A program made the translations under genes and the position numbers. From Gammaproteobacteria bacterium (GTDB taxonomy: Bacteria > Pseudomonadota > Gammaproteobacteria > Arenicellales > DRJH01), in NCBI GenBank assembly GCA_011052285.1, contig DRJH01000455.1:1-29310 (forward strand): a DNA stretch of 29,310 nt, in the 5' to 3' direction. Under the pieces are notes generated by a model. The model was given only the letters and a program-made list of their open reading frames with translations. It did not search any database and was not told the DNA's origin. Below, one piece after another: positions 1 through 6,204 of this stretch. Positions within the stretch are counted from its first letter, which is position 1. Each line of letters begins with the position of its first letter.

Positions 1-461
1 ATCGTTGCCTGACAGTAAGTTTCATCAGGAAAAGCAATTCTTAGTTGGCTAATATCACCCGGAGCAATGGCATTCGGCATGTTCACAACCGTTCCTTGCC
101 CTTTTTTAAAACCAACAGGGCCATATCCAAGATAGAGAGATGAGCCAACAGAAAACTTAACTTCGGGATATTTGACCTTACTATCCTGCAACGAGAAGCT
201 ACCATTTCCATTCCGCCACTGCCCCAGCCTTAATCGCACCTTGCTTTGGCCAGTACATTCATTTTCTGACGCACTACCAAACAGCCCCGCTTCACGCTCA
301 CGTAATTTATTCACGTCATAGCCGCAATCCTCCGCAGCGGCGACCCGCCACCACTGCCTCAGCAGCGCCTTAAAGGGTGGAGTGCGCCATTGCCCCTGCT
401 GTTGGGCATTGCCCAAAAAGGCCGGGGTGGTAAAAGACACCTGCAGTTCCAGCTTCTTCAT
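1..461 (-). CDS. cmr1: Type III-B CRISPR RAMP protein Cmr1 (N-terminal part; runs off the left edge)
   Basis: Manual translation from ATG at 461 gives MKKLELQVSFTTPAFLGNAQQQGQWRTPPFKALLRQWWRVAAA...LREREAGLFGSAS...SKVRLRL...LYLGYGP, open to base 1. The TP-FLG, 'K-LLR-WWR', 'E--LFGS' and 'YLGYG' motifs are typical of Cmr1. ATGA overlap with the cas6 stop. Absent from the ORF track. Confidence 0.88.
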   Translation of the reverse strand, partial: MKKLELQVSFTTPAFLGNAQQQGQWRTPPFKALLRQWWRVAAAEDCGYDVNKLREREAGLFGSASENECTGQSKVRLRLGQWRNGNGSFSLQDSKVKYPEVKFSVGSSLYLGYGPVGFKKGQGTVVNMPNAIAPGDISQLRIAFPDETYCQAT

Positions 462-1348
462 CCCGCTTCCCCTTGGTTTGTTGACGTGAGCGCATACCGT
501 CCCAGGCCCATGGTGGCCAGTTTGCCGATATGCACCCATTGACCCAACCAGAGCAGGGACCAGATCCCCTGCACCTGTTCATTAGTTAACGTAAAATTGC
601 CCATCACACCGCCGATTTTCATTGCAGTTTTCTGACGGCTTGAATACCGTTCCATTTCCTGCCAGCGGCAATCCGTTGCTTGCCATTGTCCCACCGTACT
701 GACCTCACACAATGCCCGCATGGAGTTCTCTTCACCCCAGAATGACGCCAGACTGATGAGTCGCCGCCGCAATGCAGTGATCCAGTGTTCCAGATTGAGC
801 GTTTTCGGGGTGATGAAATGACCCTGATACTTGAATCTTGCCGGGGTCAAGAGTTGCAAAGACATGGCCCCCGGCTGGCATTCCGGGATTTGGACTAATG
901 ATTCAGCTGGCAGCTGCAGTTTCTGCCATTGGGTGCCATTGAAATATTCGTTGGTCGCGAGGGTGAACGGAATCTGTGCCACTCGACTCGCACCCGCCTG
1001 ACGCAGCGCCTGCAGGATAAAGGGCAGGAAACCCAGGGCACGGCTCCCGATCACCGTCATATAGAGCGACATTTTTCCATCCTCAAGGGCGGGGAACATG
1101 GTGTACGGTGCGGGCACACCGCCACTGGCCGCTTTGGGGTCAAAGATCCACTTCGATTCGAAAACCGTGGTATAGGCACAGGTTTTTTTTACCGGGCAGT
1201 TTTCACAATGGCCCTGACTGAACAGGCAAACCAGTTTTTTCAGCGCATGGCCGAATGCACCACGCCAGGCGGAGCCCAGATAGTGTCCGGGATGTGCAGT
1301 GCCCGGCATCGAAAACCGAAGGCGCAGCGGGACGAGCGCAAGTGCCAT
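458..1348 (-). CDS. cas6: CRISPR pre-crRNA processing endoribonuclease Cas6
   Basis: GSAWRGAFGHALK motif, N-terminal Cys cluster (C-x6-CxxC-x5-C), C-terminal G-rich loop GQWVHIGKLATMGLGRY. Start placed at ATG 1348 (MALALVPL), 5 nt after the upstream stop; the ORF-track start at 1447 overlaps the upstream gene. Confidence 0.92.
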   Translation of the reverse strand: MALALVPLRLRFSMPGTAHPGHYLGSAWRGAFGHALKKLVCLFSQGHCENCPVKKTCAYTTVFESKWIFDPKAASGGVPAPYTMFPALEDGKMSLYMTVIGSRALGFLPFILQALRQAGASRVAQIPFTLATNEYFNGTQWQKLQLPAESLVQIPECQPGAMSLQLLTPARFKYQGHFITPKTLNLEHWITALRRRLISLASFWGEENSMRALCEVSTVGQWQATDCRWQEMERYSSRQKTAMKIGGVMGNFTLTNEQVQGIWSLLWLGQWVHIGKLATMGLGRYALTSTNQGEAG

Positions 1349-1352
1349 GGGA

Positions 1353-1661
1353 TCATGCGAAGACAATCTGCGCCGCCTTGAGCTGGAACAAGCCAAACCG
1401 GTAATGACCGGGGGATCCGGTGCGGATAATTTCGTAAGGGGACGCATTGACGCCCAATCCCTGGCGTATTGCCTTGTTGATCAGCGACTTTCGTTGCTCA
1501 AAGTACGACTTGGTCATCCCATGTCGAAGTGCCTCCCGGGTTCTGTCGTGACCTTGCAGGCCATTGTTTGTGATCTGTAGGTAATTGTCAATAAAAGCTT
1601 TTCCGCTGTCCACATCGGGGCAGCCATCTGCAGGACAGGCGATCGCAGCCGATCCTTGCAT
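1353..1661 (-). pseudogene. C-terminal remnant of an NE0113/Csx14-like CRISPR-associated CARF protein
   Basis: The 102-aa frame (AFIDNYLQI...EALRHGMTKSYFEQRKSLINKAIRQGLG...PYEI...YRFGL) resembles my recollection of the NE0113-family C-terminal domain. It sits directly upstream of cas6. In-frame TAG/TAA immediately precede the ATG, there is no SD and no CARF domain. Confidence 0.55.
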
Positions 1662-1790
1662 TTATCGCTGCTACAAAAAATAGTCAAAAAAAGCAAACCA
1701 TGAGCCATGTTTCAATAAGAAAGCTATTGTCTCCTTCCGTAATTATGTGGGTAGATTCACAAAACTCAGATTCCAACCGGTATTGGTTAA

Positions 1791-1809
1791 CCACCACATG
1801 TAGTGGTGG
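1791..1809. promoter_or_regulatory. Inverted repeat CCACCAC-ATGTA-GTGGTGG; resembles a single NrdR-type box
   Basis: Perfect 7-bp arms seen directly. CCACCACATGTAGTG loosely matches the NrdR consensus acaCwAtATaTwGtg, but no nrd gene is nearby. Confidence 0.25.
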
Positions 1810-1878
1810 GCAGATAAGTAAACGAAGGAGAGTGACTACCACGAAGACTGTTGGAACAATTATGATATGATATACTAT

Positions 1879-1898
1879 CCATAAGTTTTAACTTATGG
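1879..1898. promoter_or_regulatory. Candidate CbbR/LysR operator CCATAAGTT-TT-AACTTATGG
   Basis: Perfect 9-bp inverted repeat 10 nt upstream of the cbbR ATG. It contains TAA-N8-TTA, matching the TNA-N7/8-TNA sites described for CbbR. Confidence 0.65.
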
Positions 1899-1908
1899 AA
1901 TATCTGCC

Positions 1909-2835
1909 ATGCATGTTACCCTGCGTCAACTCACCGTATTTGAGTCCGTGGCCCGGAACTTAAGTTTCACCCAGGCGGCAGAAGAGCTGTTTCTAAGCCA
2001 ACCGGCCGTGTCGATGCAAATCAAGCAACTGGAGCAGAATCTAGAGGTCATGCTGTTGGATCGGGTGGGCAAGCGGACTTACCTCACCGAGAGTGGGCGA
2101 GAAGTCAAGGCCACCTGCAAACGAATCACCCACCTGCTCAATGAGTTGGAAACCGTACTCGATAATCTCAAAAACCTCAAAGCCGGCAAACTGCACTTAA
2201 CCGTCGCGTCGACAGCAAATTATTTTCTTCCCGCCATACTTGCAGTATTCAAACAACGACTGCCGCAGATCAGTATTGCCTTGAATGTCACCAATCGCAA
2301 GAATCTGCTGGAAGCGCTGGATGATAATGATGTGGACCTGGTGATCATGGGCCAACCACCGGAAGACAGGGATCTCGAAGCAGGCGTATTCGCCCTCAAT
2401 CCTCTGGTTATCGTAGCCAACTCCGACCATGAACTAGCCGCTCAGTCACGGGTGCCATTGCAGCGACTTAAAGATGAGATATTTCTGGTCAGGGAACAAG
2501 GCTCGGGAACCCGTATTGCCATGGAACGCTTCTTCCATGAACAGGGCATTCGCATGAAAACCGGCATGGTGGCCGATAGCAACGAAGCGATCAAGCAAAG
2601 CGTCGCTGCCGGCTTGGGACTCGGCCTGTTGTCACACGATACTCTGGCGATGGAACTACAGCTGAATTACTTGACTATTCTCGATGTCATCGATATGCCC
2701 ATCATCCGCAAATGGCATATCGTTCATCGAGCCGGCAAACGCCTGAGCCGTTCTGCAGCGGTATTCAAGGATTTCCTGCTCGACGAAGGCGAAACCATCC
2801 TCGGCGGGCCTGATCGGTTTGCCTCCCAAACCTAA
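1909..2835 (+). CDS. cbbR: LysR-family regulator, CbbR (RuBisCO operon regulator) type
   Basis: MHVTLRQL..F..VAR..SFT.AAEEL.LSQPAVSMQIKQLE HTH; REQGSGTR and SNEAIKQSVAAGLGL motifs characteristic of the CbbR subfamily. Confidence 0.85.
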   Translation: MHVTLRQLTVFESVARNLSFTQAAEELFLSQPAVSMQIKQLEQNLEVMLLDRVGKRTYLTESGREVKATCKRITHLLNELETVLDNLKNLKAGKLHLTVASTANYFLPAILAVFKQRLPQISIALNVTNRKNLLEALDDNDVDLVIMGQPPEDRDLEAGVFALNPLVIVANSDHELAAQSRVPLQRLKDEIFLVREQGSGTRIAMERFFHEQGIRMKTGMVADSNEAIKQSVAAGLGLGLLSHDTLAMELQLNYLTILDVIDMPIIRKWHIVHRAGKRLSRSAAVFKDFLLDEGETILGGPDRFASQT

Positions 2836-4163
2836 CCCCCAACATCAAACAGGGAACGGTCAATAATATCGAGCATCTGATCCACCTGTTCGGCTGAAAT
2901 CGACAGCGGTGGAGCAATCCGCAGAACATTCCCGTACAGGCCACCATGACCCAGTAGTAGGCCTTTTTCCTTGCAACGATCCATTAACGCCACCGTTTCC
3001 TTGACTGCGTGGACCTTGGTGTTCTTGTCTTCGACCAGTTCCATACCCAGCAGCAGCCCGCGACCGCGAACATCACCAATCAATGCGTGGTGCGTTTGCA
3101 TCTGCTTGAGCCCGTCTACTACCCGCTGACCCATATCCCGGGCATTGGCGATCAGATTTTCTTCCTTAATGATTTCAAGTGCCAGCCTGGCTTGCATGGT
3201 CTGATAGGGATCACCACCAAAAGTATTAAAATACAATTTACCAGCCAGAGATTCAGTATCCGCAGTTTTCATCAACGCGGCACCAATGGCCGCACCATTA
3301 CCCAGGCCCTTGGCCATGGTAATCATGTCGGCATCGATACCGAGTTCGCGGGTTAACAGATAACTTCCGCCACAGCGGCCTGCTCCGGTCTGCACTTCAT
3401 CACTGATGTACTTGCCACCATAGTTATGCACAATCCGGGTGACTTCAGCAAAATAATCTGCTGGTGGTGTAATAAAACCACCCACTCCCATTACCGGCTC
3501 CACAATCATGGCGGCAATACGCCCGTGGGTACTGGTTTGAATGGTGGTCTCTACATTCTTCGCACATTCCAGCTCACAGCTTTCCGGCTTTTGCTTGAAT
3601 GGACATCGGTAGCAATAAGGTTCCAATGCGCTGGCCGTAGCAGCACTTGGCTGGGCTCGAAATCGCCAGTTGTGATGGCCACATTGTGCCAGAGTACCTG
3701 AGGTGCCGCCGTGGTAGCCGTGACGCAAATTAACAACAATCGATTCGCCGGTGGCATGCCGGGCCGTCATGAATGCCAACTCGTTAGCCTCGGATCCGGA
3801 ATTAGTGAATGAAGCACGATCAATGCCCTCCGGGGCTTCGGCCAGCAGCGCCTCGGCCAACTCAACCGAAAACCGACTCAAATACAGCAGAGTCGTATGC
3901 TGGATCTGGTCAGATTCAATCATCTCAATGATTTTCTGTTTGATCCGGGGATGATTATGGCCAACGGAGATACAGATAATGCCTCCAATTGCATCCAGGT
4001 AGCGGTTGCCCGCTTCATCCCACACATGCACACCACGGGCTTTGACCAGGTGCAGGGGTTGTTCATGGTAGAGATGGGCGGTTGGCAGGAAGTGTTGCTT
4101 GCGACGCTCGATCAAAAAAGCATTACTGGGAAAAGAGGCGTTGCCGGGGGCTTGGTTGCGCAT
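2832..4163 (-). CDS. Class III PLP aminotransferase (AGXT2-like / GabT superfamily)
   Basis: YLDAIGGI..SVGHNHP, FTNSGSEANE, YHGGT, IVEPVMGVGG, DEVQTG, MAKGLGNG (PLP lysine), DVRGRGLLLG. Confidence 0.9.
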   Translation of the reverse strand: MRNQAPGNASFPSNAFLIERRKQHFLPTAHLYHEQPLHLVKARGVHVWDEAGNRYLDAIGGIICISVGHNHPRIKQKIIEMIESDQIQHTTLLYLSRFSVELAEALLAEAPEGIDRASFTNSGSEANELAFMTARHATGESIVVNLRHGYHGGTSGTLAQCGHHNWRFRAQPSAATASALEPYCYRCPFKQKPESCELECAKNVETTIQTSTHGRIAAMIVEPVMGVGGFITPPADYFAEVTRIVHNYGGKYISDEVQTGAGRCGGSYLLTRELGIDADMITMAKGLGNGAAIGAALMKTADTESLAGKLYFNTFGGDPYQTMQARLALEIIKEENLIANARDMGQRVVDGLKQMQTHHALIGDVRGRGLLLGMELVEDKNTKVHAVKETVALMDRCKEKGLLLGHGGLYGNVLRIAPPLSISAEQVDQMLDIIDRSLFDVGG

Positions 4164-4977: not shown

Positions 4978-6204
4978 TCACGCTTTGGCCGTACTAACAG
5001 CACCAGCAATACGCCGACCAAACACTACTTCCTGTCCGGGCATCGGCTGTGTTGGGATATTGAACGCCAGAAGCAAAGATATGACCGCAATACCCGTACC
5101 GGTAAAAAAGACCGCTGCCGGAGAGATCATCCAGACCACGCCGAGGAGTACGGGTAAAATCACAGCTGCGATATGATTTATCGAGAAGGCCACCCCCGCT
5201 GTTGAGGCGATATCCGCTGGATCGGCGATTTTCTGAAAATAGGTTTTGATGCTGATGGCCATGGCAAAAAACAGGTGATCCAGTACATACAGAATCATTG
5301 CCAGCCAGGCAGTTTCAACCACCGCATAAGCATAGAACACGATGATCAGGCCGATATATTCACAAATCAAGGCGCGACGTTCACCCCAACGGACAATCAT
5401 CCTGCCAATCTTCGGCGCCAAAAAAATATTCAGGGTGGCATTGAGTAAAAACAGCAGCGATATCGTCCCAACACTGAGACCAAATTTTTCCACCATCAAG
5501 AACCCGGCAAACACCACAAAAATCTGCCGTCGCGCACCTGCCATGAACGTTAATGCGTAATAAAGCCAATAACGACGCCGTACAATCAATTTCTTATTCT
5601 GTACGATATGGGCTTGAAAGTGCGGAAAAAAGGCGGCTGTACCCAACACAATAAGCAGGCTAATACCCGCACCGGCCAGGTAAATCCAGTGATACTCCAG
5701 CGCCAGTTTTTCAGATAAGAGCCAAACCATCGCAAAACTGAGAATAGCCGCAAATGAACGGGTGGAAATAATGCGTCCCAGGATCTCCGGTGCATTATTT
5801 TTCGGCAACCATTGCAGAGACAACGAGGACTGCAGCGTCTCTTGATAATGGAACCCCAGCGACATCAGCACCGTGGTAAGGTAAAGACCCAACACGGACG
5901 GAAAGAAGCCGGTAACAGCGGTACCGGCTGCCATCAATACGACCATCCAGTAAAAAAGCCGCTGTTCCCGCACCAGTAACAACAACAAGACGACTGCAAA
6001 AGCCAGTAATCCAGGGATTTCACGAATGCCTTGCAGCAGCCCCATATCGGCACCGGTAAAAGCGGCCCGTTCAATAGCAAAATTGTTCAGCAAGGCCTGC
6101 CAGGTTGCAAAGCTGAAGGGGATCGCCGCAGCCAGGCACATCAGCATGACTTCCGGGCGCTGGCGCAACGCCAGAATTTTTTGTCGCATCATGTCAGTGC
6201 GCAC
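4978..6204 (-). CDS. MFS transporter
   Basis: About 12 hydrophobic segments in 408 aa, with G-x3-x-RWG-R-type loop (GRMIVRWGERR). Start could be ATG 6192. Confidence 0.85.
   Translation of the reverse strand: MRTDMMRQKILALRQRPEVMLMCLAAAIPFSFATWQALLNNFAIERAAFTGADMGLLQGIREIPGLLAFAVVLLLLLVREQRLFYWMVVLMAAGTAVTGFFPSVLGLYLTTVLMSLGFHYQETLQSSLSLQWLPKNNAPEILGRIISTRSFAAILSFAMVWLLSEKLALEYHWIYLAGAGISLLIVLGTAAFFPHFQAHIVQNKKLIVRRRYWLYYALTFMAGARRQIFVVFAGFLMVEKFGLSVGTISLLFLLNATLNIFLAPKIGRMIVRWGERRALICEYIGLIIVFYAYAVVETAWLAMILYVLDHLFFAMAISIKTYFQKIADPADIASTAGVAFSINHIAAVILPVLLGVVWMISPAAVFFTGTGIAVISLLLAFNIPTQPMPGQEVVFGRRIAGAVSTAKA

Follow-up and report, generated by a model that had tools for sequence, protein, structure and literature searches.

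The window, a stretch of 29,310 nucleotides from contig DRJH01000455.1 of a gammaproteobacterial genome (GCA_011052285.1), carries near one end an orphan cbbR gene whose promoter-operator is compact and self-contained; this gene has probably been brought by rearrangement beside the decapitated front of a type III-B-like cas operon. The cbbR gene is not divergently adjacent to any cbb operon; its neighbour is the block of csx14 remnant, cas6 and cmr1. The features of the region are the following.

3-461, minus strand: cmr1, N-terminal 153 codons (PADLOC Cmr1 PDLC00976, E 2e-9); the contig end at base 1 cuts the gene.
458-1348, minus strand: cas6, 296 aa from the ATG at 1348 (Pfam PF10040, E 1.4e-13; PADLOC Cas6 PDLC01477, E 1.2e-67).
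1353-1697, minus strand: NE0113/Csx14-type CARF gene, 5'-truncated and decayed (tblastn with the protein P0063).
1563-1591, minus strand: promoter-like site inside the csx14 remnant, TTGACA-17-AACAAT (consensus scan, 10/12 matches).
1728-1818, no strand assigned: copy of a dispersed repeat of about 90 bp (blastn and nhmmer copies on other contigs).
1860-1908, plus strand: conserved 5' control region of cbbR with extended -10 and CbbR box (homology with the sister species G001).
1879-1898, no strand assigned: CbbR recognition box (a box type common among cbbR relatives).
1909-2835, plus strand: cbbR, LysR-type regulator of the CbbR clade (domains and tree; no cbb gene linked here).

An earlier note on this DNA had described a Csx14-like fragment, cas6 and cmr1 that face away from cbbR across about 250 bp, with neither cbbL nor cbbM beside the regulator. 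This layout is borne out. The domain and PADLOC matches agree for cas6 and cmr1 and the tblastn match for the fragment, the gap between the 102-aa ORF (1353-1661) and cbbR is 247 bp (1662-1908), and the window contains no RuBisCO gene, the single form II gene of the genome being found on contig C482.

The junction between cbbR and the cas genes is real and is present in two assemblies. An independent metagenome contig, L137 (VAOU01072956.1), matches window positions 5-3912 with 99.8% identity, 8 mismatches and no gaps, has no mismatch within 699-2942 and ends at window base 5. It spans the whole junction, and the possibility of an assembly artefact, raised in the earlier note, is thereby excluded. 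That an assembler joined cas and cbbR segments of different places or organisms across the dispersed repeat is extremely improbable, although the genome, a metagenome bin of 494 contigs (N50 7.9 kb), is fragmented, the repeat lies at the join and the cas end coincides with the contig end. Besides the second contig with its 8 base differences, there are records of the exact LysR on a contig of 61,651 bp and of a Cas6 with 99.7% identity, likewise on a contig of that length. The repeat copies, found on contigs C488, C77, C118, C125 and C109 with blastn and nhmmer, have a longest common exact word of at most 14 nt and are too diverged for merging assembly paths. The G+C content is uniform over the join, the cas genes having that of the genome, and the in-frame stops in the csx14 remnant indicate evolutionary decay rather than an abrupt cut. 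The chimera reading is thus largely refuted already.

The csx14 gene is a 5'-truncated pseudogene. Residues 260-371 of P0063, an NE0113-family CARF protein of 371 aa, match 1694-1356 at 81% identity through two stops in tblastn. Only the last approximately 112 codons are left, with the two in-frame stops at 1662-1675 and the 102-aa ORF downstream of them still open; about 777 bp of the gene are lost, plus whatever stood upstream. A tblastn search with five full-length relatives showed no trace of the N-terminal CARF domain (PF09623) in the window. Such full-length relatives carry PF09623, pass TIGR02584 and match Csx14 (TIGR03642) weakly, and the family-specific C-terminal domain has 62 library matches, mostly at the C-terminal end of proteins of 350-400 aa.

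The PADLOC match of cas6 begins at residue 35 of a 329-aa ORF and another record calls the 296-aa form; the true start is probably 1348, the longer ORF from 1447 not being used. The ATG of cmr1 at 461-459, its likely true start, overlaps the cas6 stop at 460-458 as ATGA. This tight packing with overlaps of a few bases is that of type III-B (Cmr) loci with an NE0113/Csx14-type CARF gene, cas6 and cmr1. The CARF gene is adjacent in 8 of 11 sampled gammaproteobacterial loci with the same Cas6 type, but in those eight it follows cas6, whereas the remnant in the window precedes it. In further contrast to such loci, the CARF domain is deleted here, there is no adjacent array, and searches of the genome, which is 92% complete, with TIGR02577, PF03787 and TIGR02580 brought up neither cas10/cmr2 nor cmr3-6; the contig ends inside cmr1 and these genes are possibly unassembled. 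Matches to PF22335 in the genome look like ordinary nucleotide cyclase domains, judging from their scores and from an E. coli control that also matched. No CRISPR array is present in the window or next to the G001 cbbR. Elsewhere in the genome, arrays lie at the ends of contigs C312, which also has csx1-csx16, a CARF nuclease, cas1 and cas2, and C454, which has type I-G genes.

The regulator encoded at 1909-2835 (+) has 308 aa with an HTH_1 (PF00126, E 1.9e-21) and a LysR_substrate domain (PF03466, E 2.4e-51). Its best NCBIfam match is CbbR (NF045990, 278.7 bits); the cut-off of 450 is not reached, as is expected for distant CbbRs with this Rhodobacter-type equivalog. In a quick maximum likelihood tree of 105 rows, the cbbR genes of the window genome (G000) and of G001 (support 100) nest with three form-I-linked CbbRs (support 96), and LysR paralogues split off at 100. 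The window LysR belongs to the CbbR clade, and the phylogeny thus agrees with the CbbR-type identity first proposed from the letters of the sequence. In four related families, orthologues with 54-61% identity lie divergently to cbbLSQO. RuBisCO is divergent within 1 kb at 49 of 99 CbbR-clade loci, and found elsewhere in the fetched flank at 12 more, which upholds the claim that the usual divergent partner has been lost here. In domain architecture and clade the regulator is like the CbbR of Nitrosomonas, Acidithiobacillus, Cupriavidus and Rhodobacter, the LysR-type activator of Calvin-cycle cbb operons. It differs from these in being divergent from no cbb gene, in the loss of the regulated half of the ancestral intergenic region and in its long branch and sub-threshold NCBIfam score.

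The sequence at 1879-1898 is CCATAAGTT-TT-AACTTATGG. The palindrome that was called perfect has perfect 9-bp arms, but it is interrupted by a 2-nt centre. Its core ATAAG-N6-CTTAT at 1881-1896 (ATAAGTTTTAACTTAT) is an inverted repeat of the T-N11-A type; it is found once in the window against 0.64 expected, which is not significant alone. Of 79 relatives, 43 have the same box at 10-55 bp before the cbbR start; it is near-identical in Acidithiobacillus (L099) and stands near the regulator's own start codon, as in known CbbR systems. By its sequence, 1879-1898 is a conserved CbbR box. The strict form ATAAG-N5-7-CTTAT shows no enrichment over the whole genome (5 sites against 8.6 expected), so the regulon is not callable from the motif alone.

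Upstream of cbbR the sister species shares only 49 bp (1860-1908), comprising the box and an extended -10, TGATATACT, read by eye at 1868-1876. These 49 bp would hold an extended -10 promoter for cbbR, promoter calls here being consensus matches only. The start site would fall in the box, which would let CbbR repress its own gene there. Autoregulation explains the box, since it is kept in G001, where no divergent cas operon is present at cbbR.

The three species of the genus (G000, G001 and G002) have one form II RuBisCO gene each. In the window genome it is cbbM on C482, with no LysR gene beside it. RuBisCO and cbbR are on different contigs both here and in G001, the two genomes whose contigs allowed the comparison, and no close cbbR orthologue was found in G002. 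Upstream of cbbM there is a box ATAACCATATAATTAT followed by 27 nt, TTTATG, 12 nt and TATAGT, with the same layout in G001 and the box centre about 65 bp upstream of the predicted start; the presence of RuBisCO with a matching box at roughly this distance is shared with known CbbR systems. This box is the likely trans target of CbbR, as judged from layout and conservation in two species only, with a loose box pattern that occurs 55 times in the genome. CbbR would then act in trans on the single form II gene. The idea that an ancestral cbbR-RuBisCO intergenic region was split between cbbR and cbbM is unsupported; cbbM has its own box and the CbbR groups with form-I-linked regulators.

The comparison of neighbourhoods bears on how the locus arose. 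The cbbR of G001 is 89% identical to that of the window, with no RuBisCO there and quite different neighbours on both sides, and homology at the DNA level is limited to 1860-2831 (81%). Of the rearrangement proposed earlier, the removal of the front of the cas operon and the loss of the divergent RuBisCO partner stand, but not a single event that swapped RuBisCO for cas genes. The dispersed repeat lies precisely where the csx14 remnant gives way to the cbbR control region and may mark how the deletion or rearrangement came about. The two species of the genus with this cbbR each carry a cas6 gene within 2 kb of it. These cas6 genes belong to unrelated families, and the pattern hints at an adjacency older than assumed.

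In RuBisCO-linked relatives the sequence reading away from cbbR consists of the box, about 27 nt, a (C/T)TTAT(G/A) half-site, about 11-12 nt and a -10 hexamer. On the cas side, CAACAG stands where the half-site would be and GTCACT where the -10 would be, both elements having been replaced by unrelated DNA that includes the dispersed repeat. The operator described as intact is therefore so in its recognition box, but not in the half-site and -10. The layout of a CbbR-activated divergent promoter is not seen on this side, where only a -35-like TTGTTC (1859-1854) resembles the relatives. Its distance to the box is that of the -35 of the Nitrosomonas cbbL promoter, and an activator-dependent leftward promoter using it with a poor -10 is possible. 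Another promoter-like site that reads leftward, TTAAAA-18-TATCAT (1891-1862), overlaps the box and may respond to CbbR, with repression the most likely mode. The site at 1563-1591 (-) is a candidate CbbR-independent promoter for cas6-cmr1; these genes, if expressed at all, would most likely use a promoter within the csx14 remnant or weak read-through.

These sites bear on the proposal that cas6-cmr come under a CbbR-controlled promoter, so that immunity is tied to CO2 fixation. According to it, CbbR bound at 1879-1898 controls, by activation or repression, a leftward transcript that crosses the csx14 remnant and continues into cas6-cmr1, and immunity follows carbon-fixation status; this is quite improbable. 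The intact box does face the cas genes over the 247 bp, with the TTGTTC at canonical distance and the leftward site overlapping it. With the csx14 promoter gone, cas6-cmr1 needs another, the tract 699-2942 is identical between two populations, and LysR-type control of cas operons is already known. Against this, the cas side lacks the half-site and -10 that RuBisCO-linked relatives and the cbbM upstream region have, and the box is equally conserved in G001 without a divergent cas operon. Pseudogene and repeat would make up the first 475 nt of the transcript, the better promoter-like site lies inside the csx14 remnant, none of the other 98 CbbR-clade loci has cas genes nearby, and the genome yielded none of the effector genes cas10 and cmr3-6. 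Since nothing but the regulator's own binding site survives, immunity is unlikely to be under CO2 control, and CO2-linked cas expression is an unsupported possibility and not the likely reading. Its fullest form is a long shot as well: that the box with TTGTTC, or the overlapping site, puts cas6-cmr1 under CbbR, that the immunity of this uncultured sulfur-oxidiser-like gammaproteobacterium follows Calvin-cycle metabolite status, and that the cas6 genes of unrelated families next to cbbR in the two sister species reflect a long-standing association.

A changed function of the regulator, which after losing a form I RuBisCO partner would have gained a new effector or regulon and no longer report carbon-fixation status, is unlikely. 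The long stem of the window and G001 genes (0.62 changes per site against 0.19-0.27 for the nearest relatives), the NCBIfam score far under the cut-off and the different flanks of the gene in the sister species would fit such a change. However, the canonical box upstream of the gene suggests an unchanged DNA specificity, a matching box stands upstream of cbbM in the canonical layout in both species, the genome keeps RuBisCO and encodes no close CbbR homologue besides this one, and the NCBIfam model is specific to Rhodobacter-type CbbR.

The orphan cbbR beside a decapitated cas operon can be set against known cases of regulation. The LysR-type regulators LeuO (PMC6698644), LrhA (PMC12968389) and PigU (PMC10810281) control CRISPR-Cas systems and RpaB controls the type III-Dv system of Synechocystis (10.1101/2023.12.07.570523), showing that metabolic or environmental regulators can set CRISPR-Cas expression. 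As with LeuO, LrhA and PigU, a LysR-type regulator stands next to cas genes in the window. The four published cases rest on binding and expression data, whereas that of the window rests on adjacency, with the promoter parts for activation missing. No paper linking CbbR to CRISPR was found in a literature search. If true, CbbR control would extend these examples and offer a natural instance in which autotrophic carbon status sets the antiviral readiness of a type III system. On the present evidence the locus serves better as a worked example of regulatory decay, in which a divergent pair has parted and the regulator has kept the 49 bp it needs, the target-side promoter parts being seen instead at the unlinked RuBisCO gene. 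Unless the other promoter parts are checked against relatives, an operator that is intact and faces a new neighbour is poor evidence of rewiring.

The dispersed repeat was also considered as an RNA gene. Its minus strand folds better than shuffles (z -2.75), but the main hairpin is not kept in the C488 copy and Rfam gave no match for 1500-2000, and this candidate was rejected. In a confident structure model (pLDDT 89.8), the 102-aa remnant forms three helices and a hairpin. Matches in the PDB are weak (Foldseek E at least 1, best Z 3.4) and mostly to winged-helix DNA-binding domains, among them the wHTH of Csa3 at Z 2.7, so that a winged-helix assignment of the modelled remnant is only suggestive.

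The window is an entire contig, the longest in a fragmented metagenome-assembled genome (G000; 494 contigs, 3.41 Mb, N50 7.9 kb, 92% complete). The anatomy given for its left end in the earlier note (cmr1, cas6, a Csx14-like fragment, a palindrome and a LysR-type gene) is correct, with a gap of 247 bp between the csx14 remnant ORF and the LysR-type gene. The features are:

3-461, minus: cmr1, running past the contig end
458-1348, minus: cas6
1353-1661, minus: 102-aa ORF, csx14 remnant
1662-1697: decayed csx14
1728-1818: dispersed repeat copy, about 90 bp
1860-1908: the only upstream stretch in common with the sister species G001
1909-2835, plus: LysR-type gene, cbbR
C488:6500-6590; C77:43-132; C118:13033-13127; C125:9050-9139; C109:3517-3604: further repeat copies on other G000 contigs

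The remaining genes are those of an ordinary chromosome, among them a class III aminotransferase, a DedA-type protein, an MFS transporter, PEP carboxylase, MsrA, endonuclease I, an Opp/Dpp-type ABC transporter and a tail-specific protease. There are no cbb genes among them.

The junction between the cas genes and cbbR is real. A metagenome contig of 3,908 bp (VAOU01072956.1) aligns gap-free to window positions 5-3912, with 8 mismatches. It runs from cmr1 through cas6, the csx14 remnant, the gap and cbbR into the aminotransferase gene. In cluster records, a Cas6 with 99.7% identity and the exact LysR are each assigned to a contig 61,651 bp long, and the cas genes have the same G+C as the genome. 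As VAOU01072956.1 spans the join, the worry about an assembly chimera is removed, and this explanation is very improbable. Both assemblies stop inside cmr1, at most 5 bases apart (window 1-5), which suggests a repeat, an insertion or a strain-variable break there; cmr1 itself may be interrupted at this position. The two sequences differ at 154, 468, 514, 698, 2943, 3279, 3372 and 3747. None of the eight differences is in the central 2,244 bp (699-2942; cas6, remnant, gap and cbbR), with p about 0.001 if they were evenly spread.

Judged from its phylogeny, the protein of 1909-2835 is a true member of the CbbR clade, as had been proposed. A 105-row maximum-likelihood tree pairs it with the G001 orthologue (support 100), nests the pair with three form-I-linked regulators (support 96) and separates the LysR paralogues from the CbbR clade (support 100). 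In four related families, orthologues with 54-61% identity are transcribed divergently from cbbL-cbbS-cbbQ-cbbO, and in most of 80 relatives from species-representative genomes the divergent neighbour, at 110-210 bp, is a RuBisCO gene of form I or form II. The window and G001 pair has a long stem, 0.62 changes per site, and the window regulator scores under the cut-off of the NCBI CbbR model, which is Rhodobacter-type. A regulator with changed function is an unlikely reading.

The palindrome, CCATAAGTT-TT-AACTTATGG, has arms of 9 bp and a centre of 2 nt and is, taken alone, within chance expectation. In 43 of 79 relatives ATAAG-N5/6-CTTAT precedes the cbbR start by 10-55 bp, and Acidithiobacillus carries a near-identical copy of the window box. 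By this likeness the palindrome is a CbbR box, and the operator claimed for it holds only as a recognition box. If TGATATACT (1868-1876) is read as an extended -10, its predicted transcription start would fall inside the box, and the 49 bp of 1860-1908 would be a self-contained, autorepressed cbbR promoter.

The comparison with G001 is weighed as decisive for the reading of the locus. Its cbbR shows 89% protein identity, and 81% DNA identity over 1860-2831, to that of the window, and both flanks are unlike those of the window. Its upstream neighbours comprise one small divergent ORF and two unknown ones, together with a Cmx6-type Cas6 and sulfite-reductase-like genes; conservation of the 49 bp extends to this locus, which has no divergent cas operon. 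Form II RuBisCO is present once per genome in all three species of the genus (G000, G001, G002), on a contig other than that of cbbR in G000 and G001; a close cbbR orthologue was not found in G002. The differing G001 flanks and the unlinked RuBisCO in both genomes indicate that cbbR had lost its RuBisCO partner before it came to lie beside the present cas genes. The lone Cmx6-type Cas6 of G001 (L024:11717-12721 on contig C9, 1.7 kb upstream of cbbR; TIGR02807, 115.7 bits) has no sequence relation to the window Cas6. A further 98 CbbR-clade loci show no cas genes nearby, and the presence of cas6 near cbbR in both species is due to chance or is a relic of an old hotspot for defence genes next to cbbR in this genus.

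Here cbbR is probably an orphan that regulates its own expression and acts on cbbM in trans, next to a cas locus in decay. Relatives linked to RuBisCO have, in this order away from cbbR, a box, about 27 nt, a (C/T)TTAT(G/A) half-site, about 11-12 nt and a -10 such as TATAGT. Exactly this order is found upstream of G000 cbbM (C482, locus L002; ATG at 5525), with box ATAACCATATAATTAT at 5638-5653, 27 nt, TTTATG, 12 nt and TATAGT; the predicted start lies about 65 bp downstream of the box centre. The layout recurs at G001 cbbM, where the box is ATAAGGGCAATATTAT and a 35-nt block is identical to G000. The cbbM box is probably what the orphan CbbR targets in trans.

The cas side keeps only a -35-like TTGTTC (1859-1854), with CAACAG at the half-site position and GTCACT at the -10 position. 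A leftward promoter-like site at 1891-1862 overlaps the CbbR box, and a better one, TTGACA-17-AACAAT, lies inside the csx14 remnant (1591-1563). The suggestion that CbbR controls cas6-cmr1 and so links immunity to CO2 was not upheld and is quite unlikely, because the promoter parts needed for it are missing and the box is accounted for without any cas control. Among LysR-type regulators, LeuO (PMC6698644), LrhA (PMC12968389) and PigU (PMC10810281) are already known to control CRISPR-Cas, and in Synechocystis RpaB couples light and redox conditions to a type III-Dv system (10.1101/2023.12.07.570523). The literature search found no paper with a CbbR-CRISPR link.

The cas side of the junction is broken. 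The 102-aa ORF corresponds to residues 260-371 of P0063, a 371-aa NE0113-family CARF protein (81% identity); homology extends past the ORF to about 1697, across two in-frame stops, and then ceases. The gene has lost about 777 bp, and all DNA upstream of it is gone as well. One repeat copy is located exactly at the csx14/cbbR join and two at contig ends. The repeat has at least six copies in G000, 78-88% alike with exact shared words of at most 14 nt, was not found in G001 or G002, has no Rfam match and is possibly MITE- or REP-like.

Full-length relatives of the remnant pass TIGR02584 and match Csx14 (TIGR03642) weakly. NE0113-type CARF proteins were predicted as transcription regulators by Makarova et al. 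(PMC4012209), and Csx14 was grouped with Crn1 ring nucleases by Hoikkala et al. (PMC12409355). In eight of 11 gammaproteobacterial loci sampled (L126-L136, Cas6 homologues) the NE0113/Csx14-type gene immediately follows cas6 and shares its strand, whereas in the window the CARF remnant precedes cas6, the reverse of this tight pairing. Searches of the rest of G000 turned up no cas10, cmr4 or RAMP genes. Two G000 contigs each end in a CRISPR array: C312 (L115) with a csx1-csx16 fusion, a CARF-PD-(D/E)xK nuclease gene, cas2, cas1, a diverged cas1 and cas2 (repeat ending in ATTACGAC), and C454 (L116) with the type I-G genes cas8g, cas4-cas1 and cas2 (repeat ending in ATTGAAGC). C312 and the window cas genes may be part of one type III locus.

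The remnant could still yield a small protein. The surviving C-terminal domain (1353-1661, minus) is open for 102 codons, and stand-alone short homologues of 94-120 aa are present in the protein library. Its confidently predicted fold has three helices and a hairpin (pLDDT 89.8), and the PDB matches of the model are weak and largely winged-helix.
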